Below are positions 1 to 23,078 of a stretch of DNA of 64,000 nucleotides, piece by piece. Origin of the DNA: Candidatus Thalassospirochaeta sargassi (GTDB lineage Bacteria; Spirochaetota; Spirochaetia; UBA9216); the NCBI GenBank assembly GCA_028532855.1, contig JAQQAL010000022.1, positions 4,844 to 68,843 of the forward strand. Reading direction: 5' to 3'. How positions within the stretch are numbered: the stretch's first letter is position 1; every line of letters begins with the position of its first letter. Under the pieces are notes generated by a model that worked only from the letters and a program-made list of their open reading frames with translations, searched no databases and was not told where the DNA came from. The position numbers were made by a program, and so were the translations under genes.

Positions 1-555
1 TTTGCGATTTTACCATTCTATATCCCAATGTTAATTGCGGTTGATTTGAGATTTCTAAGAATTTTACGATTAACAAGACTGTTACGAGTATTAAAAATAA
101 ATCGATACACAAATTCCCTCAAGTTAATTGTAAAGGTGTTAAAAAGAAAAAAGGAAGAACTGATTGTTACCATCTTTGTAATGGTGATAATGTTATTATT
201 GTCTGCTTCGATAATGTATTATTTAGAAACAGATGCACAGCCGGAAGCTTTCCCAAATATAATAGCCGCATTCTGGTGGGCTATAGCAACCTTAACGACT
301 GTTGGTTATGGAGATGTATATCCAGTAACAGTTTTGGGAAAAGTTTTAAGTGCAATTATTGCTGTTATAGGAATTGGAATAGTTGCATTGCCTACAGGAA
401 TCATAAGTTCTGGATTTATTGAAGAGATAAATAAAGAAAATATAAGAAGTAGAAAAAATAGAAGGAAAAAGAATATTAGGAATTTAGAGAGAAGGAAACA
501 GAAAAGAAGATACAATACTAAAATAAAGAAAATAAATGGTTTTAAGGGTGAATAA
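1..555 (+). CDS. Voltage-gated K+ channel (6TM Kv-like), 5'-truncated at the window edge
   Basis: The reading frame is open from nt 1. It has an S4-like RxxRxxR segment (LRILRLTRLLRVLK), a pore helix with the K+ selectivity filter TTVGYGD, and a basic C-terminal tail. Confidence 0.8.
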   Translation, partial: FAILPFYIPMLIAVDLRFLRILRLTRLLRVLKINRYTNSLKLIVKVLKRKKEELIVTIFVMVIMLLLSASIMYYLETDAQPEAFPNIIAAFWWAIATLTTVGYGDVYPVTVLGKVLSAIIAVIGIGIVALPTGIISSGFIEEINKENIRSRKNRRKKNIRNLERRKQKRRYNTKIKKINGFKGE

Positions 556-575
556 TTAAAATACTTGGAGAAGAG

Positions 576-1382
576 ATGAATATATTTGAAGAAATTGGAG
601 AAATATTCCCCGAATTAGATGTGCTCTCTTTTTTGTTGCCAACTACTGATGATGAATTATTGAAAAAATATAGTTCGACTATTGATAATTATAATAATCT
701 AAAAACACTGCCAGTAAAATTTAATGAAATATTCGCCTCGAATGGGTGGATAGCTACTGATGATCTATCAGTACCAGTAATGAAAGAATCTATAGAAATA
801 TATAAAAAAGAAGGTATAGGAAAAGCAGAAGACTTTTTGGTTAATGAATTTACTGAAGATTATTTTTATAATAATTTAAGAAGAATGTGTGCTGTATGGG
901 TTTTTGAAGATAGAAAAGATTTAATAGAACTAGCATATAAAGACCATTCTAAAGAAAGATATCACGCCTCTGTGCCGGTAGTTTTAGCACAAATTGATGG
1001 AATAATTCATGATATTGCGAATCAAAGTTTTTATGAATTAGATAAGAAATTAGATATATTTAAAATAGATAGCGCAATAACCGGATTAAAAAATGAATTG
1101 CATACGATAGCTAAAAAGATGAATAAAACAAGGAATGAGACGAAGAACTCTCCATTATCATTTCCGTATCGTAATGGAATAATACATGGGCGTGATTTAA
1201 ATTATAGTAATAAATATGTCTCTACAAAATGTTTTTTTAATTTATTTGCAATTAGACCATGGGCTTTATTTATTCAGCAAAATGAGATGAAAAAAAGGCA
1301 AGGCGCTGAGTTTATAGATATACCTAAGTTGAAAATAGGAAAAAAATTGGATGAAAAGATTGAAAAATTATTAAAGGATTAG
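576..1382 (+). CDS. Hypothetical cassette protein carrying a possible HEPN-like Rx4H motif (RNGIIHGRD)
   Basis: 268-aa ORF followed directly by attC1. The motif SFPYRNGIIHGRDLNY resembles the HEPN R-x4-6-H signature (HepT/Abi-like). There is no other recognisable domain. Confidence 0.5.
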   Translation: MNIFEEIGEIFPELDVLSFLLPTTDDELLKKYSSTIDNYNNLKTLPVKFNEIFASNGWIATDDLSVPVMKESIEIYKKEGIGKAEDFLVNEFTEDYFYNNLRRMCAVWVFEDRKDLIELAYKDHSKERYHASVPVVLAQIDGIIHDIANQSFYELDKKLDIFKIDSAITGLKNELHTIAKKMNKTRNETKNSPLSFPYRNGIIHGRDLNYSNKYVSTKCFFNLFAIRPWALFIQQNEMKKRQGAEFIDIPKLKIGKKLDEKIEKLLKD

Positions 1383-1403
1383 TTTGCTTTGAAGAAAAAT
1401 CTT

Positions 1404-1534
1404 CATAACAAGCAGTTGGAGCAGTCCTGACTATTGTCACGATTCTGGCAAAGACGTTCGCTGATCGCTCACTCCAGAATCGCGCCAATACCTCGGAAGA
1501 CCTCGGCCGTCAGGCAGCTCAACTGGTCGTTATA
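1404..1534 (+). repeat. Integron attC site 1
   Basis: R''-like cATAACAa at about 1405, an internal gattctgg...ccagaatc hairpin, and the conserved 3' arm cgccaatacctcggaagacctcggccgtcaggcagctcaactggtcGTTATAA. Confidence 0.8.
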
Positions 1535-1592
1535 AATAATAAAGACTTGCGTGTTATAGTAATATATGTTACAGTAAAATATATTACGTTAT

Positions 1593-2939
1593 TTGAGGTT
1601 TTTTATGAAGTTCTATGCAAGAGAACGTGAGTTGGAGCTACTCGAGAAACAATACACCCAGGTTAAAGATAAATCGATCATGACTGTGATAACTGGAAGA
1701 AGGCGAATAGGGAAAACATCACTGTCAAAATTATACGCTAAGAATAAGAAAACTCTCTATCTGTTCATTTCAAAGAAGGATGAAGTGCTCCTTTGTGAAG
1801 AATTTATAGAAAGAATCAAAGCAGAATTTAATATACCCGTAATTGGGGATATAAGAAAGTTTCGTGACCTATTCAAATTAATAATGGAAATAGGTAAGAA
1901 AGAGAAAATTGTAGTAATTATTGACGAGTTTCAGGAATTCTTTCAGATTAATGAATCAGTATATTCAGAAATACAAAATTTATGGGATGAATATAAAAAC
2001 CAAGCGAAAGTACATCTAATTTTTATAGGATCAATTTATTCATTGATGCATAAAATATTTAAGAATAGTAAAGAACCACTATTTGGAAGAGCTGACAGGA
2101 TATTATATCTAAAGGCTTTTCCTCCAAAAGTTATAAAAGAAATTTTATCAGATAATAAGAAGTATAGTGTAAATAATTTATTTGTAAATTATTTATTGAC
2201 TGGAGGTGTCCCAAGATATCAAGAGATATTGTTGGATAATGAAAAATATTCTGAAGAAGAAATACTGGATTTCTACTTTGAAGTAGATTCTCCGTTTATT
2301 GAAGAGGGACGGACGATTCTGATTGAAGAATTTGGAAAAGAATATGGAACATATTTTTCGATATTAGAACTAATGTCAGATGGAAGAACATCACGAAGTG
2401 AAATAGAATCAATCTTAGAAAAAGATATTGGTGGATATTTAGAAAAATTAGTTACAGATTACGATATAGTGGGAAAGATAAAACCTATAGGTTCAAAACC
2501 GACTGGAAGAATACAGAAGTATTATATAAAAGATAATTTTTTGAAATTCTGGTTTAGATTTGTTTATAAATATCGTTCTGCAATAGAGAATAATAATTAT
2601 TTATATATAAGAAAGAATATAGAAGAAAATTTAAGAACCTATAGCGGTCCGATACTTGAAAGACTATATCATGAAATATATCGAAACTCTGGAAATTATA
2701 ATGAAATAGGAAATTATTGGGAGAAGGGTAATCAAAATGAAATTGATTTAGTCTGTATAGATGAGATGAATAAGAGAATGATTATTGGTGAAATTAAAAT
2801 GAATAAAGATAAAGTAAATATGAAGAAGTTGAATGAAAAATCTAAGAAATTGATCAAGAAATATAAAGAATATGAAATTGAAGAAGTAGGGCTCGGATTG
2901 CAGGATTTAGATGAGGTATTAGAAGAAAAATATTTATAA
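1593..2939 (+). CDS. AAA+ ATPase (Arch_ATPase/DUF234-type ATP-binding protein)
   Basis: Walker A ITGRRRIGKTSL and Walker B VVIIDEFQEF; 448 aa; followed by attC2. Confidence 0.7.
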   Translation: MRFFMKFYARERELELLEKQYTQVKDKSIMTVITGRRRIGKTSLSKLYAKNKKTLYLFISKKDEVLLCEEFIERIKAEFNIPVIGDIRKFRDLFKLIMEIGKKEKIVVIIDEFQEFFQINESVYSEIQNLWDEYKNQAKVHLIFIGSIYSLMHKIFKNSKEPLFGRADRILYLKAFPPKVIKEILSDNKKYSVNNLFVNYLLTGGVPRYQEILLDNEKYSEEEILDFYFEVDSPFIEEGRTILIEEFGKEYGTYFSILELMSDGRTSRSEIESILEKDIGGYLEKLVTDYDIVGKIKPIGSKPTGRIQKYYIKDNFLKFWFRFVYKYRSAIENNNYLYIRKNIEENLRTYSGPILERLYHEIYRNSGNYNEIGNYWEKGNQNEIDLVCIDEMNKRMIIGEIKMNKDKVNMKKLNEKSKKLIKKYKEYEIEEVGLGLQDLDEVLEEKYL

Positions 2940-3048
2940 CAAAAGATTTGGAGCAGTCTTAGCTATTGTCACGAAGTTTGCTAATGCAAACTTCCCGCCA
3001 ATGCCCTCGAAGACTCGGGCCGCTAAGCAGCTCAAATCGTCGTTATGT
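2935..3048 (+). repeat. Integron attC site 2
   Basis: TATAACAaaagatttggagcagtcttagc ... gctaagcagctcaaatcgtcGTTATGT. The 5' and 3' arms are reverse complements with bulged bases. The ORF stop TAA overlaps R''. Confidence 0.85.
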
Positions 3049-3079
3049 TTATCGAAAATTTTGGAGAAATTAAAAGTAA

Positions 3080-4153
3080 GTGAATAATACCGATTGGGAT
3101 GAATATGAAAATATAAAAGACAATATCATTTATCTGGATTGGAACATCATTTCTTATTTAAATAAGGGATTGGATCTTCATAATGAAATGGATAGAAAAA
3201 TATATTGTTTATCTTATGTTATGAATAATATTCTTAACCGAAGGAAATGTGTATTCCCGTATAGTAATGGACATTTTTTAGATATAAAAATGGGTTCTGA
3301 TGAATTAATTGATAATTGCTTGCAACAGCTTTTCGATATATCCGGTGGTTGGGAAATATATGAAAACCCAAGAAATCAAGATGAATTAATGATTATTAAA
3401 ACTAATATCCGAGAAAGATATAGGGAATATTCAGACTATCTTGATAAACAGAATGAATATGCAAATAAGAATAAAGTGAATTTAGAAAAATTGATTCAAC
3501 CTTATCGGGATAATGCTAATGTAATTATTGCAAATAATAATCTTAAGAATACAGATGTTGATATGGTGAATAAAGTATTTGATGCATTAATGTACGGTGA
3601 AGATCAATCTCCACAAATTGAAGTCATGAAATTAAACAAGTTTTTAAGAAATATTAAGGGCGAGAAGAAAATCAAATATCCAAATTCATAAAAATGTATA
3701 GAGGATTTTGAAGAAAATAATATAGAAAAAGAATTTGATAAGATGTTTGAAGAAAGTGATTTGCCTTATAGCACATGTGATGATTTTCTTAAGATCATTG
3801 TTGATGTTCCGATATTATCTGAATTTAAGAATAAAATAATTAAATTATGTGCATTGTCAGATATGTTAGGGTTTACATCTGAAAAGACTAAAAAGAAGAC
3901 TTCATTTCAGAGTACAATTAACGATCAGTGTCATCTCTCATATGGATTAAAAACAAAATATTTTGTAACAGAAGATAAGAATCTATATAAAAAGGGGCTT
4001 TTAATAAAAAAATACTTAAAATTAAATGTTGAAGTATTTAAAATTGATGATTTTATAATAAAAATATTAAGATTAATGAAGAAAGATAAGAAAAAAATCG
4101 AGTTGATTGTTAAAAGTGAAAATGGAGATGAAATTTATAGATATGAAGCATGA
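3080..4153 (+). pseudogene. Cassette ORF interrupted by a single in-frame TAA (3689-3691); ORFs 3080..3691 and 3743..4153 share one frame
   Basis: Both ORFs are in frame 2 with no other stop between 3692 and 3743. No attC lies between them. A single attC3 follows the second ORF. Confidence 0.45.
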
Positions 4154-4155
4154 AA

Positions 4156-4272
4156 ACATAACAAGAGATTTGGAGCAGTCTTAGCTATTGTCACGGAAAT
4201 TTTGCTTGCGCAAAATCCGCGCCAATGCCCTCGAAGACTCGGGCCGCTAAGCAGCTCAAATCGTCGTTAAAT
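4156..4272 (+). repeat. Integron attC site 3
   Basis: cATAACAagagatttggagcagtcttagctattgtcacg...cgccaatgccctcgaagactcgggccgctaagcagctcaaatcgtcGTTAAAT. Confidence 0.85.
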
Positions 4273-4370
4273 ACACGAAAAGGGTAAATTATAAAAATGT
4301 TAGGATATTTTTGTTGATGGGTGTAAAATAAAAGGAAGAAATCGCCCGGACCTCCGGCCGACGGGCGATA

Positions 4371-5195
4371 ATGGAATGCTACAATATCTATAGGATTTTA
4401 TATAAAATGTTTTATTTAGGGATAATATTTATTTTCACAATGGCAATATTCTTTAGGATTAAAATTAAAAGGAATAAAACTGTTGATAGTTTTGAGGAAA
4501 AGAACAAATACGATCCTAATTTTTTTACTGAAGATGGGAAGGAGAAGCATATTTTTGAATATATCTTTATTCAGGATAAGTTTCCTGATGAAGGTTCAAT
4601 ATTGATAGAATATAATGAACAAAAAAATCAAATTTATAAAGAGAATAAAGCACGTTATAAGAATATACCAGATGATGAATTACAGTATATAAGTATATTT
4701 GATCTGGAGAAAAATAGTGTAAATGAATTAAAGAATGAAGGAATTGTAAATCCTACATTTATTGGGCGAAAGTATAAAATAGTTAAGAATAAACTACTTA
4801 TTAACGTTTGGGAAATACCATCATTAACCGATTCATTCATCAATGGAAGAAAAGAAAAAGATTTAAAAATTGCTTTAGGAAATCTTATACATAAAAAGTT
4901 GAATATTGATATAGGATTTATTGATGATTTTAGAGGTCCTCTTAGGAAGTATCTTTACTTTCATCAATCAATCCAGACGACTTTTCAGAGTGAATATGGT
5001 ACGCCAATGTTTATTGAGATATTTGGAATAGTTGTGCATGTTAATGGAAAGGATATTATTGATCCTGATATAAAAGAAAATGGATTTCGAAGATCTCTTG
5101 AAGAAGAACTTCCAGGGCCAATTATTATAAGAGTCTTGCAAGCCAATTGGTCAAAAATTAGTTATCCAGGGGTTAATGTTCCATGTTATATGTAA
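4371..5195 (+). CDS. Hypothetical cassette protein with an N-terminal transmembrane anchor
   Basis: 274-aa ORF with a hydrophobic N-terminus (LGIIFIFTMAIFF); followed by attC4. No recognisable domain. Confidence 0.5.
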   Translation: MECYNIYRILYKMFYLGIIFIFTMAIFFRIKIKRNKTVDSFEEKNKYDPNFFTEDGKEKHIFEYIFIQDKFPDEGSILIEYNEQKNQIYKENKARYKNIPDDELQYISIFDLEKNSVNELKNEGIVNPTFIGRKYKIVKNKLLINVWEIPSLTDSFINGRKEKDLKIALGNLIHKKLNIDIGFIDDFRGPLRKYLYFHQSIQTTFQSEYGTPMFIEIFGIVVHVNGKDIIDPDIKENGFRRSLEEELPGPIIIRVLQANWSKISYPGVNVPCYM

Positions 5196-5307
5196 ATACA
5201 ATTGAATATGAAAAATTATAAATATTTAATTTGAATTAATTATATTAGGATATTATTTAAGAAAGAAATCAAGCTTTGACTCCGTCGTACAGCTTGATAA
5301 GAAACGG

Positions 5308-5444
5308 TATTTAACAAGAGATTTGGAGCAGTCTTAGCTATTGTTCACGATTCTGGCGGAGACGTTCGGCTGATCGCCTCTCTCCAGAATCGCGCCAATG
5401 CCCTCGAAGACTCGGGTCGCTAAGCAGCTCAAATCGTCGTTATA
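5308..5444 (+). repeat. Integron attC site 4
   Basis: ATTTAACaagagatttggagcagtcttagctattgttcacgattctggcggagacgttcggctgatcgcc...cgccaatgccctcgaagactcgggtcgctaagcagctcaaatcgtcGTTATAA. Confidence 0.85.
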
Positions 5445-5664
5445 AGTAACCAAGGAATGGGTTTACAAAAGTCTAAGGACATCGTTTACATTTAAGGATG
5501 GAAATGTTTAAGAAGAGATATCAAAAATTATTAATACAGTTGTAATGTTTGTATTGCTTGTAATAGAAATCATTCGTTGTGAGATCTACTTGAGCAAGAA
5601 TAAAGGATAATACAATTATGGGAATCGAGACTTCGTAAAAAAAGATAAGGTTTTGGGTTAGAAA

Positions 5665-6240
5665 ATGATAAGTATAAAATGGGAAGAGATAAAGACAATA
5701 GACCATTCAAAGTATAGGGACTTTGAACGTTTTAGGAATTTTACATTAGCTGAATATGAAAAAGTTAAGAAGGGCTATGTAAACAATGAATGGGTTCTGG
5801 ATTGGAGTAATGATAAACTGAATTGTATTAAAAAAACTGGAGAAATAATATATGAAATAAAATTTACCCATGATGAAAATACTGTTCACATTGAAACAAC
5901 TGATGTAAAAGTGAAGTATGAAGAGGATAAGACAGTATTAAATAATGATAAAGAATACCACCATAGTTTGATACATGATCTTTTTGGATATTTATTAATG
6001 TTTAAAGGTAAAATAAAATTTACTGAAGTAGAAAATATGGTAAAATTTTTCAAAAAATTTGTACTTTTGTATAGAGGTCAAAAGATATTAAAAGTAACTG
6101 ATTTAATGAAGGTTTCTAAAGAAATTACTTGGAAATATCAAATTAATGGAATCGCGTTTTCTGAACCTATTAATCTTAATGGTTATATTAGTGATGAGAC
6201 TAACGAGATTATGTTTACAGCTGAATATCATTTATTATGA
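5665..6240 (+). CDS. Hypothetical cassette protein
   Basis: 191-aa ORF between attC4 and attC5. No recognisable motif. Confidence 0.5.
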   Translation: MISIKWEEIKTIDHSKYRDFERFRNFTLAEYEKVKKGYVNNEWVLDWSNDKLNCIKKTGEIIYEIKFTHDENTVHIETTDVKVKYEEDKTVLNNDKEYHHSLIHDLFGYLLMFKGKIKFTEVENMVKFFKKFVLLYRGQKILKVTDLMKVSKEITWKYQINGIAFSEPINLNGYISDETNEIMFTAEYHLL

Positions 6241-6357
6241 AGAGATGATTATTATGGGGAAGCACAATCTGATGAATGATATTAGTAATGTTAATTGAGA
6301 GAAAAGAAAAGGATAGTTTCAATGATGAAAGAGGTCTATCCTATTTTGGAGAAGTAC

Positions 6358-6497
6358 TTATAACAAGAGATTTGGAGCAGTCTTAGCTATTGTCATGATT
6401 CTGGCAGAGACGTTCCGCGCTGATCGCGCTCCACTCCAGAATCGCGCCAATGCCGCTGAAGACAGCGGCCGCTAAGCAGCTCAAATCGTCGTTATGC
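6358..6497 (+). repeat. Integron attC site 5
   Basis: TTATAACaagagatttggagcagtcttagctattgtcatgattctggcagagacg...cgccaatgccgctgaagacagcggccgctaagcagctcaaatcgtcGTTATGC. Confidence 0.85.
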
Positions 6498-6512
6498 ACC
6501 CGCAGAGCGGGT

Positions 6513-7397
6513 ATGGAAAAAATATCTTTAATAAATTTAATGTTTCAGGTTGCAATAACTGTAAATTTTAAAGATATAGGAGCTAATGGTAATAAAGGTA
6601 AAATAGATTTGGTGAATAAAATGATAAAGTGTACAAATGAAAATAAAAATGAATTACTTACTTTTTTAAAACATAATCCTGCAGAGAATTGTTTCATTAT
6701 AGGTGATTTAGAGAATTACAGTATGGATGAAGAATTCATTGAAATATGGATGATAAGAAAAAAGAAAAATATAACAACCGTATTATTGAGGTTTTATAAT
6801 TACTATACTGTTTCCACCCATGATGAAGATGATATAGAAGAAATTATTAATCATCTAAATGCTGAAAAAGAATTAATAACATTAACTGGCGTAGAATCCG
6901 TGATCGATAAAATCTCGAAAGGAATGGAATTCTCTAAAATTAAAAGAGCAAATTTTGCGGAATTAATAGAAATAAAGAATTATAAAGAAAATTTGCTAAT
7001 TGATATTAAAAAAGCAAATATTGAAGAGATTAATGAATTATTTGAATTCCATAAGAGTATAAAAGAATTTGAAGTAAAAGAAGAAAGCAAAGAAAATTTT
7101 GGAAAAGAATTATTGGATAATACTGGAAGAATTTATTATACAAGAGAAAATAAAAAAATTGTATCGATGGCAATGATAACAGCAGAGAATAGCGTAAATG
7201 GGATGATAATGGGTGTGGCAACAGCCCAAAAATATAGAAGAAAAGGATATGCGAGAGCAATAGTTCAAGAAATATGCAAAAGTATGATTGATAATGGGAA
7301 ATCTGTAGTATTATTTTATGATAATCCAGAAGCAGGGAAAATGTATAAGGAAATTGGATTTGAAGATATAAATCGCCAAGCGACAATATATGCATAA
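6513..7397 (+). CDS. GNAT family N-acetyltransferase, cassette-borne
   Basis: C-terminal GNAT motif A (QKYRRKGYARAIVQEI) with a following YDNPEAGKMYKEIGFE. The track ORF starts at 6450 inside attC5. The start was moved to the ATG at 6513 (MEKISLINL). Confidence 0.7.
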   Translation: MEKISLINLMFQVAITVNFKDIGANGNKGKIDLVNKMIKCTNENKNELLTFLKHNPAENCFIIGDLENYSMDEEFIEIWMIRKKKNITTVLLRFYNYYTVSTHDEDDIEEIINHLNAEKELITLTGVESVIDKISKGMEFSKIKRANFAELIEIKNYKENLLIDIKKANIEEINELFEFHKSIKEFEVKEESKENFGKELLDNTGRIYYTRENKKIVSMAMITAENSVNGMIMGVATAQKYRRKGYARAIVQEICKSMIDNGKSVVLFYDNPEAGKMYKEIGFEDINRQATIYA

Positions 7398-7507
7398 CAA
7401 GCAGTTGGAGCTGTCTTATCTATTGTCACGGAAATTTTGCTTGCGCAAAATCCGCGCCAATACCCTCGAAGACTCGGGCCGCTAAGCAGCTCAACTGGTC
7501 GTTATGT
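7393..7507 (+). repeat. Integron attC site 6
   Basis: cATAACAagcagttggagctgtcttatctattgtcacggaaattttgcttgcgcaaaatccgcgccaataccctcgaagactcgggccgctaagcagctcaactggtcGTTATGT. Confidence 0.85.
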
Positions 7508-7579
7508 TTACATGGAATATATACTATAGTAACGTATAAAAAGCTTGTGAATTATATGATTTACTGGTAAAATGATCAA

Positions 7580-8758
7580 ATGGAAGAATTACTATATCAA
7601 TACAACCCTTGGTGGTCAGACGAATTCGATGTTGAGGATCTAATAATTAGAACCAATTACTTCAACAAATTAAAAAGGAATGTAGAAAATAAATCAATTA
7701 TCTTTCTGACTGGATTAAGAAGAGTTGGGAAGACAACTCTTATGAAATTGTTGATACAAGATTTAATAGAGTCAGGGATAGAAACTAAAAATATATTCTA
7801 TATAAGTTTAGATGATTACGTTTTGATAGATAAACCGTTAAGAGATATTCTTACGGAATATAGAAAGATTCATAAATTATCAATGAAAGATAAGGTGTAT
7901 ATCTTCTTTGATGAAATAACATATTCAAAGGATTATCATCAGCAATTAAAAAATATTTATGATACTCAGAACACTAAAGTGTTTGCTACATCTTCGTCAA
8001 GTTCTTTGTTAAAGGATAAAAAAGCATTTTTAACTGGTAGAGCGATTACATATGAAGTTAAACCACTTGATTTTAATGAATATTTAAAATTTAAGAATAT
8101 AAAAGTGAAAAAGAGTGAAGGATATTTATTAGAAACATATTTTAAAGATTATATGCGAGAAGGCGGAATGCCAGAAAATGTTCTTAATCCTAGTAGAGAA
8201 TATTTAATGAATTTGATAGATGATATAATCCAAAAAGATATAACAGCCTATAATGGTTTAAGAAACCATCAGATTGTCAGGGATTATTATACTTTGTTAA
8301 TGGAGAGAAGTGGAAAGCAATTAAGCATAAATAAAATAGGAAATATTCTGAAACTGTCAGTAGATACAGCACGAAGATATTTGGGGTATTTTGAAGAAAC
8401 TTATTTAATACATTTGTTATCACGGTATGGAAAAACAAATGAAAAATTGCTATCGGCAAAAAAAATATATGCATGTGATCTAGGGATAAAACATCTTTTC
8501 ATAGGTGAAAGAGATTTAGGAAGCTATTTAGAAAATTATATATATCTCAAGATGAGGAATAATAAAGACTTATTTTATTTATATGAAAATGGGAATGAAA
8601 TAGATTTTATTACAAGAGATGGGATATTAATAGAATCAAAATATTTTTCAGAGATGAATGAGAAACAAAAGAAACTATTTGAAGAAACAGAAGCAACTGC
8701 AAAGTATGTTATAGACAATATTAAAAAGCTTGAAATCCTAGAAGAATTCGAAACATAA
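7580..8758 (+). CDS. AAA+ ATPase (COG1373-like, DUF4143-type ATP-binding protein)
   Basis: Walker A FLTGLRRVGKTTL and Walker B VYIFFDEITY; 392 aa; followed by attC7. Confidence 0.7.
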   Translation: MEELLYQYNPWWSDEFDVEDLIIRTNYFNKLKRNVENKSIIFLTGLRRVGKTTLMKLLIQDLIESGIETKNIFYISLDDYVLIDKPLRDILTEYRKIHKLSMKDKVYIFFDEITYSKDYHQQLKNIYDTQNTKVFATSSSSSLLKDKKAFLTGRAITYEVKPLDFNEYLKFKNIKVKKSEGYLLETYFKDYMREGGMPENVLNPSREYLMNLIDDIIQKDITAYNGLRNHQIVRDYYTLLMERSGKQLSINKIGNILKLSVDTARRYLGYFEETYLIHLLSRYGKTNEKLLSAKKIYACDLGIKHLFIGERDLGSYLENYIYLKMRNNKDLFYLYENGNEIDFITRDGILIESKYFSEMNEKQKKLFEETEATAKYVIDNIKKLEILEEFET

Positions 8759-8869
8759 CAAGAGATTTGGAGCAGTCTTAGCTATTGTCATGGAAATTTT
8801 GCTTACGCAAAATCCGCGCCAATGCCCTCGAAGACTCGGGTCGCTAAGCAGCTCAAATCGTCGTTAAAC
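8754..8869 (+). repeat. Integron attC site 7 (last complete site)
   Basis: ACATAACAagagatttggagcagtcttagctattgtcatggaaattttgcttacgcaaaatccgcgccaatgccctcgaagactcgggtcgctaagcagctcaaatcgtcGTTAAAC. Confidence 0.85.
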
Positions 8870-9094
8870 CGCTCAATTCTGTAGATTGCTGTCTATTACT
8901 TTATATTACTTCTATATAAGAAATTAGTCAAATCTTATTGCTCCTGGTTAAGTTGGATTCGGTCTGGTCGCAACTAATTCCTATCACTAACTGCTGTCAT
9001 ATATGTATACACTAATAAGCTTTATTGCTACTTTCTTGTTGGTGCCTATTTTATCATCCTGTTAATGTCTTGTCTTAAAATCATTATATCTTTT

Positions 9095-9122
9095 GGAGGT
9101 TATTTGGCCACCTCTTTTTTTT
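9095..9122 (+). terminator. Putative rho-independent terminator downstream of the cassette array
   Basis: Hairpin GGAGGT-tatttggcc-ACCTCT followed by a T8 run. Confidence 0.35.
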
Positions 9123-9257
9123 CTCAACTGTCAGGTTAATAACCTCACTGTAAACTATTATAACTGTTAAATATTAAAACTATTTTTGTACTAACTAATT
9201 GAATAGTTTCTAATATAACAAAAAAGTATATTTTATTCTTTCTACGTCGGGAATTTT

Positions 9258-10523
9258 TTAAGTATAGGTTTTTACTTTTACTTCATCTATTGTTTCATTT
9301 GTAAAAGGTATTTTAATACTTACTTCAAATCCATTCGATTTTGAAAAAAATATAACATCACCTCTAAGTTGATATTTTACAATATTTTTTACTAATGGTA
9401 ATCCTAATGTTTTAGATTTATCTAAGCTAATAGTGTCTTCACCTCCTTTCCCATTATCAATTATACTAATATATATTTTTTCATCATTCTGATAGCTACA
9501 TTCTATTCTGATATGTATAATTTCTTGACCATAATCAGAGTGCTCAATAGCGTTTAGAATAATTTCATTCATGATAAGTCCAATAGGTATTGATATTTCA
9601 AAAGGGATTTTAATATCAACAACATCTAAAGTCACCAAGACTCTATCACTATTAAGAACATAAGAGCTGTAAATTTCTTTTGTCAAATCATATATATAAT
9701 CTTTCAACGAAATAAATCTCAGATCATTAGCAGCATATAGTTTCTTATGCACAATAGACATTGCGTCCAATCGAGATATTGATTTTTTTAATACTGATTT
9801 AACTTCAGTATTTTCGCTATTCATAATCTGAATGTTTGTTAATGAAGAAATTATTTGCATATTATTTTTTGTTCTGTGATAAAGTTCTTTTAATAAAACA
9901 TCTTTTTCATCTAAAGCTTTTTTTAAAATTTTATTTCTATTAAAAACTTTTTTTTCTAATATAGCGTTATTATTTTCTAATTCCTGCTGTCGTTTATCAA
10001 GAATAAATCTTGTGAATAAATTTGTAATTATAAAAAAAATATTTATAATAAACCATGATATAAAGATATCTTTTGTAATATTTGTTGAAAATATGAATAA
10101 TAGAGATGCAAAAGTAATTTGTAAAATTGTATAAATTATAACTTGTTTTAATTTTAGAAATAAACTTGCAATAAAGATCGTTACGGTAATCCAAACTAAA
10201 GCAGTCATAGAGTTTTTACCAGTTACATCATATTTAAAAACAACTAAATAGCAAACTAGTAAAGTTCCAAAGATTGACATTAAACCACCAATTTTAAAAT
10301 TACGTAGTTTAGCTATTAAGTAACTTATAAAAAAGATTGGCGATCCAATTGTAAGTACTTCAGTTATTCCTGGTGGTGAATGAAATATTCCAATAGTACA
10401 AATAATTGTGTATAGCAATAAGAATAACAAAAGTCCCTTTACTTTATCATATTCTAAAGAACTGTTTGATGAAATATTTGGATAAATTAAAGATTTTATC
10501 AAGTGTAACTTTCGTAGCCTCAT
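9258..10523 (-). CDS. Membrane sensor histidine kinase of HisKA_2 type; orphan, with no adjacent response regulator
   Basis: Five to six N-terminal transmembrane helices. H-box HRTKNNMQIISSL (HisKA_2 family). C-terminal HATPase-like region (NAIEHS...DNGKG). Very AT-rich, like the cassettes. Confidence 0.7.
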   Translation of the reverse strand: MRLRKLHLIKSLIYPNISSNSSLEYDKVKGLLLFLLLYTIICTIGIFHSPPGITEVLTIGSPIFFISYLIAKLRNFKIGGLMSIFGTLLVCYLVVFKYDVTGKNSMTALVWITVTIFIASLFLKLKQVIIYTILQITFASLLFIFSTNITKDIFISWFIINIFFIITNLFTRFILDKRQQELENNNAILEKKVFNRNKILKKALDEKDVLLKELYHRTKNNMQIISSLTNIQIMNSENTEVKSVLKKSISRLDAMSIVHKKLYAANDLRFISLKDYIYDLTKEIYSSYVLNSDRVLVTLDVVDIKIPFEISIPIGLIMNEIILNAIEHSDYGQEIIHIRIECSYQNDEKIYISIIDNGKGGEDTISLDKSKTLGLPLVKNIVKYQLRGDVIFFSKSNGFEVSIKIPFTNETIDEVKVKTYT

Positions 10524-11403: not shown

Positions 11404-12120
11404 TTAAATCAATCTAACTTCGATATTTTCATTAAGGTAATCTCGCCATCTTTTCCAGTCGGGGTAAACCTTTGTCAGCAGCTTAAAAAAGCGGAGGCTG
11501 TGGTTATGTTCAATTATGTGGCATAGTTCATGGAATATAACGTAATCGATGCATGGTTTCGGTGCTGCTACGAGTTCGGGATTCAGATATATTCTTCCTT
11601 CTTTTGTACAGCTTCCCCAGCGCTTCGGCATTGTTTTAACTTTCAATTCAGGGATATTTATCACTTCGATTACAGAAAATGAGTTAACGCATTTCTGCAT
11701 TCTTTCATAGAATATCTGTCGCCCCTTTTCTTTATACCAATCAAGAAGAAGTTTTTCTTTTTTTTCAATAGTAAAATCTTCAGGTGTTGAAAGGTGGAAT
11801 CTTCCATTTTTTAATTTTACTTCAGGAGGACCGTTAAAAACTTTAAGCCTATATTGTTTCCCGAGATATCTGAACGTTTCTCCGTTATTATATTTTGGTT
11901 TAGGTTGAGCCGGCTGTATACGATCAAATTTGAGTTGTTGTTTATATATCCAGGAAGAACGTTTTCTGACTTTTTCCATTATTTTATCGATCGAAGCATC
12001 TTCCGGTGCTATGACTTCAACATGCTTATCCGGATAAACATGAATTGCAAGCGTTTTCCTGTTCCTGCGGTCGAGATCGAACCGGATTTCAGTTTTACCG
12101 TATCGGACGTTATAGTTCAC
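11404..12120 (-). CDS. YgjP-like (DUF45/M48-like) zinc metallopeptidase; last gene of the type I R-M operon
   Basis: WGSCTKEGRIYLNPELV...DYVIFHELCHIIEHNHS (HExxH). It overlaps the hsdR stop by 11 nt. Confidence 0.85.
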   Translation of the reverse strand: MNYNVRYGKTEIRFDLDRRNRKTLAIHVYPDKHVEVIAPEDASIDKIMEKVRKRSSWIYKQQLKFDRIQPAQPKPKYNNGETFRYLGKQYRLKVFNGPPEVKLKNGRFHLSTPEDFTIEKKEKLLLDWYKEKGRQIFYERMQKCVNSFSVIEVINIPELKVKTMPKRWGSCTKEGRIYLNPELVAAPKPCIDYVIFHELCHIIEHNHSLRFFKLLTKVYPDWKRWRDYLNENIEVRLI

Positions 12121-15301: not shown

Positions 15302-15310
15302 TAAAAACTC

Positions 15311-16705
15311 CTATTTATCAATACCATATTTTCTTGCCTTTTCCCAGAATGACCTCTTGCGGCCGTGTTCTGCCTTTATCCTACTGAAATAATCGGCATG
15401 AGATTCGAGATTGTCCGGATACTGAGTAATTCGTTCATCGAGAATAATCAGTTCTCTCAGGTACCCGATGCCGTATTTATATGCTTTAGAATAAGCTCGC
15501 CTTAAAATGTCGTTCAGAAGCGCCCGGTACAATACTACCTGTCCGCATAACGCATTATCTGGTCCGAGCTGCTCGAGGATGTTTAGGATGGATGTGTAGC
15601 CTAATGTCTCGAAATCCGCAGCATCATTTATCAGTCTTTGTTCTGCCTCTGCAATTTTATTCAAATAGAGAAGAACCGGAACTGCCCGCTCAGGCTGGGG
15701 ATCATTAAGGGCTGTTTTTACAGCTTCTGCAAGAATCTTTTTGTGGGTGCCCGGTTCCGCAATTGAATGGTATTCTTTTAAATAATACAGACACGGATTT
15801 TCTTTCCATTTTCTCTCCTGCAAAATACGTAGTTGTTCCGTATCTCCCGTCAACTCAAACAGCTTTTTATATAATTCATCCCTGTCGGAATTAAATCTGA
15901 TTTGCCAGGTTGTTTCCTCGAGTAATTCCCTGGCTTTTTTGAAGTCAGAGAATTGTAGATAGATTTGAATAAGTCTTTTTATCTGAAGATTATTCGGTTC
16001 AGGATTACGAATACGTAAAGCCTCTTCGTAAGCTGCCGGATTATGCATGGCGATAGCGATTTGTTCCATATTTATTTCAAAACCGGCGGCGGTATGATCA
16101 TAGCCTTCGATATTGGAGCAGTCCCAATCAAGCAGTCGGTTTTTATAGATATAGTAAATTTTCTGCAATGAATCAGGAGTAAACAAAATATCCGCAGAGT
16201 TAAGTATCAGCTCCCGGCAGCCGTAATCATTGCCGTCTGCTATATCCATGATTAAGGGAATCCAGTATTCGTCCGCTTTTTTCGTTCCGGCTGCTGCTTC
16301 GAGCCAGAGAATGCAGAATTGATTGAGTTCAGTACCGACTGCGCCTCCACTGTCGTCGACATTTTCGATGATGCTTCCGTCGTTGCGCAATACAAAGTCG
16401 GCCAAGCGCCACGCTTCATCAGGGGCTGAAGGTAGTAGTGTTTCGGTAATTTCTTCGCGAAGGTCTGCAATCTCTTCAGCGAAATCAAAACTGCTGTTGT
16501 AATTTATAAACTGATTTGACTCAATCCAGTTGTTGATCCTTTTTTTAAAGAATGCGGCAACAGTGCTGTAATCATCTTTGTTAAGGCGGTTATCAATGTA
16601 ACTGCTGATTCTTTCATCCTGCTTTTGGTAGATACTCATTATTAGTTCAATGAGTTCGTTTTTTGTCATATCCTCAAGCTTGTTTTTTACTTCTTCAAAA
16701 TCCAT
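15311..16705 (-). CDS. Hypothetical protein embedded between hsdS and hsdR
   Basis: 464-aa ORF, 10-14 nt from each neighbour on the same strand. No recognisable catalytic or NTP-binding motif. Probably helical. Confidence 0.6.
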   Translation of the reverse strand: MDFEEVKNKLEDMTKNELIELIMSIYQKQDERISSYIDNRLNKDDYSTVAAFFKKRINNWIESNQFINYNSSFDFAEEIADLREEITETLLPSAPDEAWRLADFVLRNDGSIIENVDDSGGAVGTELNQFCILWLEAAAGTKKADEYWIPLIMDIADGNDYGCRELILNSADILFTPDSLQKIYYIYKNRLLDWDCSNIEGYDHTAAGFEINMEQIAIAMHNPAAYEEALRIRNPEPNNLQIKRLIQIYLQFSDFKKARELLEETTWQIRFNSDRDELYKKLFELTGDTEQLRILQERKWKENPCLYYLKEYHSIAEPGTHKKILAEAVKTALNDPQPERAVPVLLYLNKIAEAEQRLINDAADFETLGYTSILNILEQLGPDNALCGQVVLYRALLNDILRRAYSKAYKYGIGYLRELIILDERITQYPDNLESHADYFSRIKAEHGRKRSFWEKARKYGIDK

Positions 16706-18009: not shown

Positions 18010-19554
18010 CTAAAATCCCAACTCTTTCAAATATCCGTTCATCTTTGTTCTTAGCTCGCTGAGTTCTCCCTCAAGCTGCTCTATCTCTTTCTGAACGGCG
18101 GGGATGTCGACCGGTTCTTCCTCTTCGAAGGTATCAACGTAGCGGGGGATGTTCAGGTTGTAATCATTCTCCTGAATCTCTTCCTGTGAGGCAAGGTAGC
18201 TGTATTTATCTTTTGTTTCTCTATTCTTGAAGGTTGAAACGATCTTGTCGATATTTTCGCTTGTTAACCTGTTCTGATTCTTGCTGTTCTGAAATTCTCG
18301 GCTGGCATCAATGAAAAGTATATCCGTTGATTTTCGGTTTCTCTTGAAAACAAGAACGGCTGTTGGAATTCCGGTGCCGTAGAAGAGATTTCCCGGAAGT
18401 CCTATCACGGCGTCGAGCAGGTTCTCTTCAATTAGCTTCTGTCGTATCTTGCCTTCGCTTGCACCCCTGAAAAGTACCCCGTGCGGAACTACGACTCCGA
18501 TTCTGCCGTTTCCCATTGTTATAGTTTCAATCATGTGGCTGATGAATGCATAATCACCCTTTGATTTCGGCGGCAGTCCGCGGTGAAAGCGGTTGTAGGT
18601 ATCAGTCTGTGCTTCTTCAATTCCCCATTTATCAAGAGAGAAGGGCGGATTCGCAACGACAACCTCAAACTTCATGGTTGTATCGTTTTCAAGCAGCTTG
18701 GGACTTCTTATTGTATCTCCCCATTCAATTCTGGCTGAATCCATACCGTGAAGGAACATATTCATCTTGGCAAGTGCCCATGTTGAACCGGTTATTTCCT
18801 GTCCGTACAGAGCGAAATCGTTAGAATCCTTGTTTTTTACCTGATTGCCGCATTTGATAAGTAGGGAGCCTGACCCACAGGCCGGATCGCATATACGCTC
18901 GCCCGGTTTCGGATCAAGCAGTTCCGCGAGCAATTCCGACACCTCCGCAGGCGTATAGAACTCGCCAGCCTTTTTGCCGGCGCCGGCTGCAAATCTTGCA
19001 ATTAAGTACTCATAGGCATTGCCGATAACATCCATGTTACCGGTTTTTGAGGGCCTCAAATCAAGTTTCGGATTATTAAAATCCTCCAACAGGTGCTTTA
19101 ACCTCGCATTACGGTCTTTTGTCTGTCCGAGTGCTGCCTCAGAGTTGAAATCGATATTACGGAAAACCCCCTGAAGCTTCTCCCTGTTGCCTTCTTCTAT
19201 TTGTTCAAGCGCAACATTGATTATTTCTCCAAGGTTGTTTGCCTGACGTTGGGAATACAAATCGTTAAAACTGCACCCTTTGGGAAGTTTGAAGCGTTCG
19301 CGATCCAGTCTACGCCTGATTCGTTCTTCATCATTACTGAATTCTTCTATTAGGCTGTTATAGTGTTCGGTCCAGACATCGGAAATATACTTTAGAAAGA
19401 GCATTACAAGGATGTAGTTTTTATATTCAGAGGCTTCTACAACGCCCCTGAAGGTATCGCATGCCGCCCATAATACTGCCTCGATTTCCTGTTGCTTTGT
19501 TTGTGAATTGTTCTGCATATTATTCCTCATGTCCATAATTTTGATTGCTGCCAA
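18010..19554 (-). CDS. hsdM: Type I R-M N6-adenine DNA methyltransferase subunit
   Basis: Motif I DPACGSGSLL and motif IV VVANPPFS; HsdM N-terminal domain. Confidence 0.9.
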   Translation of the reverse strand: MAAIKIMDMRNNMQNNSQTKQQEIEAVLWAACDTFRGVVEASEYKNYILVMLFLKYISDVWTEHYNSLIEEFSNDEERIRRRLDRERFKLPKGCSFNDLYSQRQANNLGEIINVALEQIEEGNREKLQGVFRNIDFNSEAALGQTKDRNARLKHLLEDFNNPKLDLRPSKTGNMDVIGNAYEYLIARFAAGAGKKAGEFYTPAEVSELLAELLDPKPGERICDPACGSGSLLIKCGNQVKNKDSNDFALYGQEITGSTWALAKMNMFLHGMDSARIEWGDTIRSPKLLENDTTMKFEVVVANPPFSLDKWGIEEAQTDTYNRFHRGLPPKSKGDYAFISHMIETITMGNGRIGVVVPHGVLFRGASEGKIRQKLIEENLLDAVIGLPGNLFYGTGIPTAVLVFKRNRKSTDILFIDASREFQNSKNQNRLTSENIDKIVSTFKNRETKDKYSYLASQEEIQENDYNLNIPRYVDTFEEEEPVDIPAVQKEIEQLEGELSELRTKMNGYLKELGF

Positions 19555-20417
19555 TTGCGCGGGAATGTATTCTTTATTTCCGGTACTGATTCATACTTAT
19601 CGAATAGATCCTTTATTTCAGAGCTCCATGAACTTCCGGCACCAATTACTGATAATAGATAGTTACATATAGTTAATGCCGTAAAAACGTTGCTGTTCGA
19701 TATTCTCACAGGGCTGAACCATTCCGGATGTTTCCTTTCTCTCGGAAGTTTAAAGCTGTAACCCAGGCGTCTGTTATATAATCTTGAATGATGTGCGCAG
19801 ATATTCCGGATGCTGTTTATGCCTACTATCCATGATGACAGAACCTGATCAGGAACACCGAAGTCTTTGGCGATTGTCTGTTTCAGGCTATTGGATACGC
19901 CCCGGTATAGACTTACTATTGAGCCGAATGTCATGATTTCAACGGCCATCCATAAAGGCGGTTCTTTATGTATGTCGCCGTATTTATTCATGAAATGCCG
20001 GATAAACTCTTCACGACTTCTTTCAGTTTCTTTATGGATATTCTCTATTAGTTGTATACGCCTATAGTCTTCAAGTTCAGGTAATGCGGATTTATCAGTA
20101 TAGGCAAAGGGTCCGTTAGCCATGCTGAAGTGATAGGCTATTACTGATCTGAACGATACTTCAATCTTGTCTATGGCTGAAAGAAGATGATTTCTGAGTT
20201 TCTGATCATATTCACATATTGTGAGGATTTTTTCCAAATTAATAGATGAACTATATCTTTCATCCGGTCTTCTGAATGGATATAGATAACCGGTTAGTCG
20301 GTAGTAATTGTTATATCTCAAATATTCAAGCAACTTTTCTTTATCCGCTATAAATCCGCGGGAAATGAGTAAATCTGCTTGATCATTGATGGTTAACGGA
20401 GGTTTTGAATAGATCAT
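19527..20417 (-). CDS. Abi_2 (AbiD/AbiF-like) abortive-infection protein with a HEPN motif
   Basis: N-terminus KPPLTINDQADLLISRGF...YNNYYRLTGYLYPF and HEPN signature RNICAHHSRLYN (R-x4-H-H-x-R-L-[WY]-N). It overlaps the hsdM start by 28 nt. Confidence 0.75.
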   Translation of the reverse strand: MIYSKPPLTINDQADLLISRGFIADKEKLLEYLRYNNYYRLTGYLYPFRRPDERYSSSINLEKILTICEYDQKLRNHLLSAIDKIEVSFRSVIAYHFSMANGPFAYTDKSALPELEDYRRIQLIENIHKETERSREEFIRHFMNKYGDIHKEPPLWMAVEIMTFGSIVSLYRGVSNSLKQTIAKDFGVPDQVLSSWIVGINSIRNICAHHSRLYNRRLGYSFKLPRERKHPEWFSPVRISNSNVFTALTICNYLLSVIGAGSSWSSEIKDLFDKYESVPEIKNTFPRNWQQSKLWT

Positions 20418-20558: not shown

Positions 20559-21137
20559 TTAACTGTTTAATCCTTTTAAGATAATACTTTCAAGTAATTG
20601 TTGTTTTTTAGCATACAATTCATCCATAATCTGTTTTTCATGATTAACCGATTTTACTAATTCGGCAAAAATGTGAATGTCATTATCATTCGGCAATGGA
20701 ATTGTACAATTTTCCAGTACTCTCCGATTTACATTTATGAGTAAACTCGCTCCTGCATTCTTCCTGAAGTAATGTTGACCGGGCGACGAATTAATATACC
20801 ATGCTATGTATTCGGCAGGTAGATTGCTTTGGGGTGTTAAAACGGAAAATTGTTGTCCTGCAGCTGTATTCTTATCAACAGTTGATATCGGAACTGCAAA
20901 AATCCTTGTTCCCCGGCCGCAGAAGACGACATCGTTAGGTTTTAAAAAATCAGGCAAGCTTAAACCGACTTGGTTTATGCGAACCAGTTCTCCCCAATTT
21001 ATGCCTTCGGGGCTTGCATCTTTCATTTGAATGATGGAAAAGGCACCGTCAGGATCTTCGATTAATCTTCCCCTCACTGCATATCCGGTACGAATTTTGG
21101 TAATTTCTTTGAGTGGAACGTGTTTTAATTCCTTCAT
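20559..21137 (-). CDS. Orphan half-HsdS (single target-recognition domain plus conserved C-terminal helix)
   Basis: 192 aa with TRD-like LKEITKIRTGYAVRG...VVFCGRGTRIFAV and a C-terminus HEKQIMDELYAKKQQLLESIILKGL resembling the HsdS conserved repeat. Confidence 0.65.
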   Translation of the reverse strand: MKELKHVPLKEITKIRTGYAVRGRLIEDPDGAFSIIQMKDASPEGINWGELVRINQVGLSLPDFLKPNDVVFCGRGTRIFAVPISTVDKNTAAGQQFSVLTPQSNLPAEYIAWYINSSPGQHYFRKNAGASLLINVNRRVLENCTIPLPNDNDIHIFAELVKSVNHEKQIMDELYAKKQQLLESIILKGLNS

Positions 21138-21269: not shown

Positions 21270-21949
21270 ATGCAGCTTCCAGACATTCAATCAAAAAATA
21301 TCCGGAGAAGGAGAATATTGATGGATATCTCAAAACAAGAATATTTAGAAAATGTACTTTCCTCATACAGAATGAGGCACATTAGTCGGCTTGTAGAAAA
21401 GCATAGAACCAGACGCGACGAGATTAAGGAGTATCTTGAAGCACATTATGGAGGGAAAATCTACAATCCGATGAATTCAGGCTCTTTTGCAAAGCATACT
21501 GCAATAAACAGTAAATTTGATCTGGATCTCGTTGTTCCTTTTAAGCGTGATTCATTTGATACTTTGGAGGGGATGTTCAAAGACATATTCAAATTGTTGA
21601 ATGCTGCCTACAAAAATCGTGCTGTTGTCAGAAAGCAAAAGGTTTCCATTGGTATTGAATTTTATGCAGATAATGACGGTGATGAAATCAGTATCGATGT
21701 AGTACCGGGGAGAGAACTGGAACAGGATAAATATCCCGATAACTATAATTTAAATCTATTTGTGAATTCCCGCTACGGAACTATAGAAGAGAAGAATTTT
21801 CTGAAAACTAACATTAAGGCTCAAATTGAATATATCAAGGCTCGTGACAATGAAAGAAAAGTAATCAGATTGCTTAAAGTCTGGAAAAACAGGCATAATC
21901 GCCCGTATAAATCATTTTTATTGGAACTGCTCACGATTAAGGCTTTTGA
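21270..21949 (+). pseudogene. Pol-beta superfamily nucleotidyltransferase (cGAS/DncV/SMODS-like, or ANT-like), N-terminal 226 codons, disrupted by IS3 insertion; the C-terminal piece resumes in frame at 23148-23226
   Basis: Motifs GSFAKHTAINSKFDLDLVVPF (GS...DxD) and LKVWKNRHN...FLLELLTIKAF. Joining 21949 to 23148 restores the frame (..TIKAF-E-NDKTINKF...GG*). Confidence 0.6.
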
Positions 21950-21966
21950 TGACCTTACCCCCAGAT

Positions 21967-22794
21967 TCATCCACTTACACTTAGAGGTTCCGGCATTTTT
22001 CCTGCTTCAAACTTATCCCGAAATTCATTCGGTGACAAGTTCCCTAATGAACTATGCGGCCTAATTGTGTTATATTCATGCCGCCAATTTTCAATAATTT
22101 TCCTGGCTTCATTTAGGTTTGGAAACCAATTCATATTTAAACAATCATCCCTAAACCGACCATTGAAACTTTCTATGAAACAGTTTTCAATCGGCTTTCC
22201 GGGAGTGATAAAAGTTAATTTAATCCCTTTTGAATAACACCAGCTATCAAGGATTCTGCTTATAAATTCCGGTCCATTATCACATAATATAAAATCTGGA
22301 AATCCTCGCAATAAACCTATTCTTTCCAATGTTGCTGCTACTCTTCTTCCTGGCAATGATGAATCAACTTCGATAGCGAGTGCTTCTCTTGTAAACTCAT
22401 CAATCACATTAAAAGTACGAAATCTTCTACCACCGGCAATACTATCTGATACAAAATCCATTGACCATTTTTCATTCGGTCGAACAGGAGCATCCGGCCG
22501 TTCCCTGTTCTCAGAGCGAATCCTTCTTTTTCGTTTGCGACGCAGGCTTAATTCTTCTTCACGATAGATTCTCTCAACTTTCTTGTGATTTACTTTTACG
22601 CCTTCACGTCTTAAAAGAACATGAATTCTTGGGCTTCCATATCTCGGATATCTTCTTGCAAGAAATTTAATCCGTTCTCTGAGTTCTGTTTCTTCATGTC
22701 CTTTCTTTTCGTATCTGAAAGTGCTGCGATTAAGATGCGAGAGTTTGCATGCTCGTCGTTCAGATAGCCCGAAGTTATTGATTAGACGGTTCAC
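21967..22794 (-). CDS. IS3 transposase OrfB (DDE/rve integrase core)
   Basis: WSMDFVSDS...NVIDEFTREAL...CDNGPEF...NCFIESFNGRFRDDCLN; typical IS3 catalytic domain. Confidence 0.85.
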   Translation of the reverse strand: MNRLINNFGLSERRACKLSHLNRSTFRYEKKGHEETELRERIKFLARRYPRYGSPRIHVLLRREGVKVNHKKVERIYREEELSLRRKRKRRIRSENRERPDAPVRPNEKWSMDFVSDSIAGGRRFRTFNVIDEFTREALAIEVDSSLPGRRVAATLERIGLLRGFPDFILCDNGPEFISRILDSWCYSKGIKLTFITPGKPIENCFIESFNGRFRDDCLNMNWFPNLNEARKIIENWRHEYNTIRPHSSLGNLSPNEFRDKFEAGKMPEPLSVSG

Positions 22795-22805
22795 CGCTGT
22801 TCGTT

Positions 22806-23078
22806 TTACTTCGGGCTGCAGTAGTTTTTTACTAAATCATTTAAAGCAAGAATATCAAGAGCCTGATCTGCTACCAGCCGTTTTAGTTTCTGGTTTTCAG
22901 ATTCCAGTTCTTTAAGCCTTTTAACATCGCTGATCTGCATCCCACCATATTTACTTTTCCAATTGTAATAGGTTGCATCGCTTATTTCATACTTGCGACA
23001 GACATCAAGAACCTTCGCTCCTGCGATTACCTCATTCAAAATCTGGACAATTTTCTCTTCTGAATACTTTGTTTTCAT
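22806..23078 (-). CDS. IS3 transposase OrfA (HTH plus leucine zipper)
   Basis: MKTKYSEEKIVQILNE...ATYYNWKSKY...LKELESENQKLKRLVADQ; ends at the frameshift site. Confidence 0.85.
   Translation of the reverse strand: MKTKYSEEKIVQILNEVIAGAKVLDVCRKYEISDATYYNWKSKYGGMQISDVKRLKELESENQKLKRLVADQALDILALNDLVKNYCSPK

Follow-up and report, generated by a model that had tools for sequence, protein, structure and literature searches.

A DUF6880-family gene between hsdS and hsdR of a spirochaetal type I restriction-modification operon: a candidate accessory of anti-phage defence

The type I restriction-modification (R-M) operon in the 64,000-nucleotide stretch of Candidatus Thalassospirochaeta sargassi DNA analysed here (the window) holds, between hsdS and hsdR, a gene of the DUF6880 family (PF21810). 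Here it is tentatively proposed, with a little less than even confidence, that its product serves anti-phage defence as a binding-type accessory (a sensor, an adaptor or a sequestering protein), a TPR-like solenoid of non-enzymatic appearance that is carried as mobile cargo of R-M operons. It is reasonable to consider the gene a candidate for an anti-phage accessory; the kind of system is not new.

The gene and its operon

The 464-amino acid open reading frame reported between hsdS and hsdR in a preliminary description of this DNA was found exactly as stated, on the minus strand (Table 1). The same description listed seven genes on one strand separated by 14 nt or less, or overlapping; the gene order and strand stood, backed by Pfam and PADLOC scans, but not the spacing, as the half-hsdS and abiD are 141 nt apart, with an 11/12 promoter-like site (20520-20492) between them. 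Two other promoter-like sites were found upstream of the half-hsdS, at 21253-21226 and 21174-21146, and promoter-like matches in the region were not more frequent than in shuffled sequence. The true start of hsdM is likely at 19518, following the call in the orthologous locus on Logan contig L001.

Table 1. Features of the minus-strand gene string and of the DUF6880 gene, in window coordinates
Feature	Position	Strand	Basis
YgjP-like metallopeptidase gene	11404..12120	-	PF01863, 9e-59
hsdR, type I restriction subunit, 1063 aa	12110..15301	-	HSDR_N, SWI2_SNF2, T1R_D3-like, T1RH-like_C
AGGAG Shine-Dalgarno of hsdR, overlapping the TAG stop of the DUF6880 gene	15308..15312	-	Junction sequence
DUF6880-family gene, 464 aa, ATG start	15311..16705	-	PF21810, 91 bits
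HxRKxSFW C-terminal signature, codons H447-G-R-K-R-S-F-W454	15344..15367	-	H 100/101, R449 94, K450 100, F453 101, W454 99
DDSxG loop, codons D117-D118-S119-G120-G121	16343..16357	-	D117 97/101, D118 99/101, S119 97/101, G121 97/101
hsdS, specificity subunit, 429 aa	16720..18009	-	Pfam
hsdM, methyltransferase subunit	18010..19554	-	Pfam
Abi_2/AbiD-family gene, between half-hsdS and hsdM	19527..20417	-	Pfam; PADLOC AbiD 1.1e-72
Orphan half-HsdS, 192 aa, single TRD, first in string	20559..21137	-	PADLOC

The DUF6880 gene starts 14 nt after the stop of hsdS and ends 9 nt before the ATG of hsdR, with no minus-strand terminator-like site at either of its junctions. The overlap of the hsdR Shine-Dalgarno sequence with the stop of the DUF6880 gene suggests coupled translation, so that the DUF6880 gene is probably translationally coupled to hsdR. 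At the other end of hsdR, the YgjP-like gene overlaps it by 11 nt; in unrelated type I systems of the survey (L063, L075, L085, L154) a YgjP-like gene also overlaps or directly follows hsdR, making the HsdR-YgjP pairing recurrent across the surveyed type I systems.

The ORF is a real gene, and a chance ORF is excluded. A Spirochaetales MAG encodes the exact 464-amino acid protein, deposited as hypothetical, the family numbers more than 2,000 cluster representatives, and an orthologue with 89% identity occupies the same operon position on contig L001. Comparison with this orthologue gave a dN of 0.057 and a dS of 0.50, and the resulting dN/dS of ~0.11 indicates purifying selection. In the same comparison, the dN of the operon partners was lower (0.009 for hsdR and 0.014 for hsdM), that of the DUF6880 gene being 4-6 times higher. 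The clade to which the window protein belongs is rare and divergent, with only 7 proteins recovered by word search, and its best match in the genome collection has 32% identity.

The two operons differ in hsdS, as the window gene and its counterpart in L001 (8745-9986) can be aligned only at both ends and over 117 nt in the centre (429 vs 413 aa), while the flanking DNA has 94-95% identity on both sides. This looks like a swap of the target-recognition domain, i.e., a change of specificity. Divergent from the R-M string, the 21270-23078 region of the window has a CBASS-type cyclase gene (SMODS; PADLOC Cyclase 6e-65), broken at ~21950 by an IS3-family transposase (rve; 21967-22794, with the ORF 22806-23078); L001 (1-5433) has an intact SMODS-ThiF(E1)-JAB-DUF6602 operon, and the synteny between window and L001 stops exactly at 21950. 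The first ~10 kb of the window have a G+C of 0.28-0.31 (0.23-0.27 at ~9000-10500) and a strong positive GC skew, and the rest ~0.40-0.45, with the switch near 10500, just past a histidine-kinase gene (9258-10523); the low-G+C part, 1-10500, may be a separate acquired region.

Family, signature residues and predicted fold

The gene had been described as unknown, and its product as a possible new factor. Although DUF6880 is uncharacterised, the family exists: the window protein matches PF21810 far above the gathering cutoff (91 vs 27.3 bits, E = 1.1e-25), as do 101/101 of its aligned relatives, and homologues on RefSeq plasmids are annotated as "DUF6880 family protein". Nor does the term new apply, with DUF6880 already in Pfam and a distant, SWIM-fused branch already listed in PADLOC as the candidate PDC-S62. 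When 1.84 billion cluster representatives were searched with a profile of the seven closest homologues, 2,165 matched at E <= 1e-3 (440 of them at E <= 1e-30), and almost all were single-domain proteins of 440-480 aa matching end-to-end (query profile positions 1-458). The window protein and DUF6880 are collinear over their full length, belong to the same ~450-470 aa class and have the motifs DDSxG, SKAY and HGRKxSFW in common; the window protein has no feature that sets it apart from the family.

The signature residues were derived here from the 101-member alignment (~25% pairwise identity to the window protein) and not from a published definition. These include the DDSxG loop, the C-terminal consensus H447-x-R449-K450-x-[SA]-F453-W454 (Table 1), R394 (101), Y409 (101) and Y415 (99), with Y161 also conserved (93); the window protein carries the whole signature: DDSxG, R394, Y409, Y415 and HxRKxSFW. 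The invariance of the polar residues suggests one specific binding (or catalytic) site.

The AlphaFold model, built on a shallow alignment of 7 sequences, has a pLDDT of 89.7 and corresponds to an all-alpha solenoid with a TPR-like centre, the central third of the protein being also the place of its TPR matches and its sub-threshold Pfam TPR matches. Like binding proteins of the TPR/HEAT alpha-solenoid type, the window protein is predicted to be an all-helical solenoid, and the proteins nearest to it in structure are TPR/HEAT scaffolds (APC/C subunits, LGN/Pins, Ctr9 and Get4, among others); the structure search gave no specific solved or viral relative, and PDB chains searched with the single protein and with the 101-sequence profile returned noise or generic TPR segments only. 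With a pI of 4.86 and a net charge of -23 over its 464 aa, the protein has an acidic body and a basic C-terminal tail. A relationship to DNA-mimic anti-restriction proteins (ArdA/Ocr-like) was rejected because the acidity is moderate, homology is lacking, phage records and PHROGs gave no match, and the gene is chromosomal, in a host R-M operon.

The preliminary description saw no P-loop, nuclease or HEPN motif, and this was confirmed, since neither a Walker A motif nor an ATPase or nuclease domain was found in the window protein by motif, Pfam or PADLOC searches. A HEPN RNase was likewise rejected, as the sole R-x4-H string, RIKAEH (R442-H447), has its R kept in 13/101 relatives and there is no HEPN match in Pfam. 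Pfam, PDB and the structure search gave no enzyme family related in sequence or fold. NCBIfam and PHROGs had no family match.

The textbook example of a back-up defence that is nested in an R-M operon and checked by the R-M complex is PrrC (Payne et al., bioRxiv 10.1101/2024.01.29.577857). Like PrrC and RloC, both encoded within type I R-M operons, the window gene is a non-R-M gene nested in an hsd operon in the same orientation as its neighbours. However, PrrC and RloC are anticodon nucleases, whereas the window protein has no ABC/P-loop ATPase or nuclease domain and no similarity to them in sequence or fold; also, unlike DUF6880, PrrC is nearly confined to R-M operons, where its place is between hsdM and hsdS.

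Three distant relatives (P0158, P0159 and P0160) have an N-terminal SWIM zinc finger (PF04434) ahead of a DUF6880-like body, the finger being found in P0159 and P0160 and sub-threshold in P0158. P0158 and P0159 match PF21810, and P0159 (6e-35, 118.9 bits) and P0160 (3e-20) match PDC-S62, a single-gene phage defence candidate. PDC-S62 proteins have, as does the window family, a DDSxG-type loop in a DUF6880-like body and a basic C-terminal H/YGR[KR]; however, they are of ~550-640 aa with an N-terminal SWIM, and the 464-aa window protein lacks it (no PF04434 match). The match of the window protein to the PDC-S62 HMM (566 positions) is weak and partial, with 29.7 bits for aa 4-122 aligned to profile positions 106-223. 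PDC candidates were nominated for their embedding in type I R-M, BREX or DISARM systems (Payne et al., bioRxiv 10.1101/2024.01.29.577857), and the window gene, between hsdS and hsdR of a type I R-M operon, is embedded in this way. The gene for P0159 (L089 656-3728) comes after a VWA_CoxE gene, and from this context the SWIM-fused branch may belong to another operon type than the R-M-linked one. Literature searches for DUF6880 and PDC-S62 found no mention of them, those for PRiA4 with defence and for the SWIM zinc finger with defence found nothing relevant, and the accessible part of the supplementary files of Payne et al. had no entries for PDC-S62, SWIM or DUF6880.

Genomic contexts of DUF6880 genes

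The context survey included 80 loci from GTDB species representatives, a biased sample taken with a 22-sequence alignment and seeded only on HGRKRSFW, and 80 metagenome contigs seeded on HGRKRSFW and a second motif. One horizontally transferred clade dominates the locus samples, and with this and the motif seeding the percentages are not unbiased family-wide estimates. Genes for type I hsdM/S/R or type III mod/res were present within 10 kb in 21/80 genome loci, and R-M or typical R-M-accessory genes in 41/80, almost always co-oriented with the DUF6880 gene; a random gene would be expected within 10 kb of an R-M gene in roughly 1% of cases. Similar fractions were observed in the metagenome contigs, where R-M subunits were found in 12/80 (8/38 of those of at least 6 kb) and any accessory in 36/80 (20/38). 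Counted by clades at 60% identity (n = 25), R-M subunits were nearby in 5 and any labelled accessory in 8, and 17 had no labelled R-M or accessory family within 10 kb. The proposal of an R-M-linked factor therefore holds in that the linkage recurs in both collections and in several clades, but not for the 17 of 25 clades without labelled R-M or accessory genes, whose neighbours include defence and mobilome genes (PDC-S01, AbiE, NERD-UvrD, type IV restriction, TOTE, transposases) as well as housekeeping genes. Housekeeping neighbours of family members include trmE, yidC, panB and maf.

The place between hsdS and hsdR had been regarded as characteristic of defence accessories, and the neighbours agree with the accessory part of this claim. 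RhuM (PADLOC PDC-S05), YhcG/DUF1016 and AlbA_2/Schlafen-like proteins are recurrent direct neighbours, Fic lies directly upstream of DUF6880 in a gammaproteobacterial clade, and AAA_13 (PDC-S06, PrrC-like), SbcD and SbcC-like genes form a recurrent neighbouring trio. The place itself did not recur: among the loci surveyed, strict embedding between hsdS and hsdR was found only in the window and in its 89% orthologue. R-M-linked DUF6880 genes are usually located after the operon, amid cargo such as RhuM, PRiA4_ORF3 and Fic, and not between the subunits. Additionally, an AlbA_2-DUF6880-mod(-res) architecture ties DUF6880 to type III systems (L022, L110, L175). The HsdR proteins near DUF6880 in the genome loci are only 25-47% identical to that of the window and thus do not reflect one inherited arrangement.

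The dominant clade, of ~45-50 loci, has a median identity of 77% across phyla (Desulfobacterota, Gamma- and Alphaproteobacteria, Calditrichota, Spirochaetota, Nitrospirota and others), a sign that DUF6880 has been transferred horizontally. In PLSDB, homologues were found on 66 plasmids, and in the two that were examined the gene is solitary among IS and toxin-antitoxin (TA) genes. The family is nearly absent from the phage and viral collections, with no match among 50,697 phage records and one locus in IMG/VR, in an SbcD-SbcC-like-DUF6880-PRiA4-RhuM cassette.

Several gene combinations recur in the surveyed loci. PRiA4_ORF3 (PF07929) is immediately downstream of DUF6880 in 16 loci (e.g., L064 11206-11796, 196 aa), with a 4-nt overlap in 15 of them, and the pair looks like a two-gene operon; a PRiA4_ORF3 protein of 444 aa adjoins a SWIM-fused DUF6880 relative (L090). 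A cassette of AAA_13 (PDC-S06, PrrC-like, with a CxxC motif), SbcD-like, SbcC-like and DUF6880 genes was found in L042 (2469-11200), L071, L083, L086, L093, L155 and L158, followed by PRiA4_ORF3 and RhuM in about half of these loci. Its SbcC-like protein is of ~1,090 aa with weak LmuB matches, and the cassette, present in several phyla and one IMG/VR contig, is widely transferred. A 417-aa protein with no Pfam match adjoins DUF6880 in L007 (1362-2615), L067, L081, L138 and L139, immediately upstream in the first three. This protein is a distant DUF6880 paralogue (hhalign probability 95%, end-to-end) in which DSKG and RRPAF replace DDSxG and RKxSF, so that the two genes form tandem paralogue pairs. 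The 64 kb of the window have no PRiA4_ORF3, RhuM, Fic, YhcG, AlbA_2, AAA_13 or paralogue c24.

Possible functions and their meaning

As a binding-type accessory of defence, the DUF6880 gene would share a transcript with the hsd genes and be coupled to hsdR in translation, and its product would recognise a phage or host protein, or a ligand, via a putative conserved pocket. The product would then act autonomously or pass the recognition on to neighbouring effectors, itself neither cutting nor modifying nucleic acid. As most relatives do not occur in R-M operons, the product probably acts autonomously or through a widely available partner, and not through the R-M complex of the window. Since it has no effector domain, a partner or a sequestration mechanism is needed, and none was found for the clade of the window protein.

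A related R-M backbone bears on how such genes are kept. Two metagenome contigs (L096 1-5224 and L097 1-3373) combine into the order half-hsdS, hsdM, DUF6880 (408 aa), hsdS, DUF3800, a 163-aa ORF, an MqsA-like gene and hsdR, and their R-M proteins are orthologues of those in the window (84.5% identity for HsdM, 77% for the HsdR N-terminus and 53% for the half-HsdS). Their DUF6880 protein, without the first ~47 residues, is 36-37% identical to that of the window, and its gene lies between hsdM and hsdS with a 1-nt gap, whereas that of the window lies between hsdS and hsdR, a slot filled in L096/L097 by the DUF3800, 163-aa and MqsA-like genes. There is also no AbiD between the half-hsdS and hsdM in this backbone. 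This R-M lineage thus offers three or more slots for cargo, two of which hold divergent DUF6880 alleles. DUF6880 was either acquired on two occasions or changed its place while diverging far more quickly than the R-M genes; under each of these histories, a random passenger is less plausible, and some functional affinity with R-M operons more so. A bolder form of the defence reading, possible but on the unlikely side, is that DUF6880 is a widespread, mobile, single-gene anti-phage or R-M-guarding family with no enzymatic domain, which would sense or sequester a phage factor, e.g., an anti-restriction protein, via a putative DDSxG/HxRKxSFW pocket, and whose divergent alleles would have been repeatedly recruited by R-M lineages into different slots.

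The gene could also be a passenger with no role in defence, R-M operons and defence islands acting as sinks for mobile cargo and DUF6880 serving a mobile element or an unrelated function. The extensive horizontal transfer is consistent with this, and so are the mixed contexts, which also speak against the defence reading: the 17/25 clades with no labelled R-M or accessory genes, the housekeeping neighbours, and the IS and TA genes around the plasmid copies. However, a passenger is unlikely, given that the gene is under purifying selection, that operon members are strictly co-oriented with almost no intergenic gap, that the R-M association recurs in several clades and two independent collections, and that DUF6880 occurs twice in one R-M lineage, and Pfam scans found no transposase, integrase or replication domain.

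Less probable is an R-M-specific modulator, binding HsdR or the M2S core and controlling the assembly or activity of the complex, for instance by alleviating restriction upon establishment or by acting as a guard that signals when the R-M complex has been inactivated, as EcoprrI does for PrrC. The position immediately upstream of hsdR, with the Shine-Dalgarno sequence over the stop, would fit this role, as would the retention of a DUF6880 allele by the R-M lineage despite a different slot and sequence, and a dN ~4-6 times that of HsdR and HsdM. The SWIM domain was first described partly in bacterial SWI2/SNF2 ATPases, and the SWIM finger of some relatives would be in line with the SWI2/SNF2-type motor of HsdR. 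However, most family members are not beside an R-M gene, many being solitary on plasmids or chromosomes; those that are R-M-linked usually follow the operon among cargo, and the associated HsdR proteins are very diverse, with type III systems also represented.

It is more doubtful still that DUF6880 belongs to a two-component module (toxin-antitoxin-like or sensor-effector), in which it is usually paired with PRiA4_ORF3, Fic or a DUF6880 paralogue, and that the window copy derives from such a module without its partner and works with the R-M or AbiD proteins instead. The 4-nt overlap with PRiA4_ORF3 and the presence of another such gene beside a SWIM-fused relative point to a module of this kind, together with the genes directly upstream, Fic in the gammaproteobacterial clade and the paralogue in three loci; against it, many members are solitary and the window has none of these partners, nor RhuM. 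Lastly, a cryptic all-alpha enzyme or small-molecule sensor (putative site D117, D118, S119, R394, Y409, Y415, H447, R449, K450) is improbable. In its favour, these polar residues are 94-100% conserved at ~25% overall identity, which is unusual for a pure scaffold and might point to an active site that the searches did not recognise; against it, there is no match to an enzyme family in either sequence or fold.

The preferred reading stays that of a binding-type defence accessory, and as such the DUF6880 gene is a well-documented candidate of a type already listed in bulk by guilt-by-embedding surveys, unsurprising for specialists. The related R-M backbones, with alleles 36-37% identical in different slots, are a natural experiment on why R-M systems keep cargo. 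If the reading is true, a non-enzymatic TPR-like player would be added to the genes nested in type I R-M operons, and if DUF6880 is a defence or R-M-modulating factor, this would be the first function assigned to its more than 2,000 sequence clusters.
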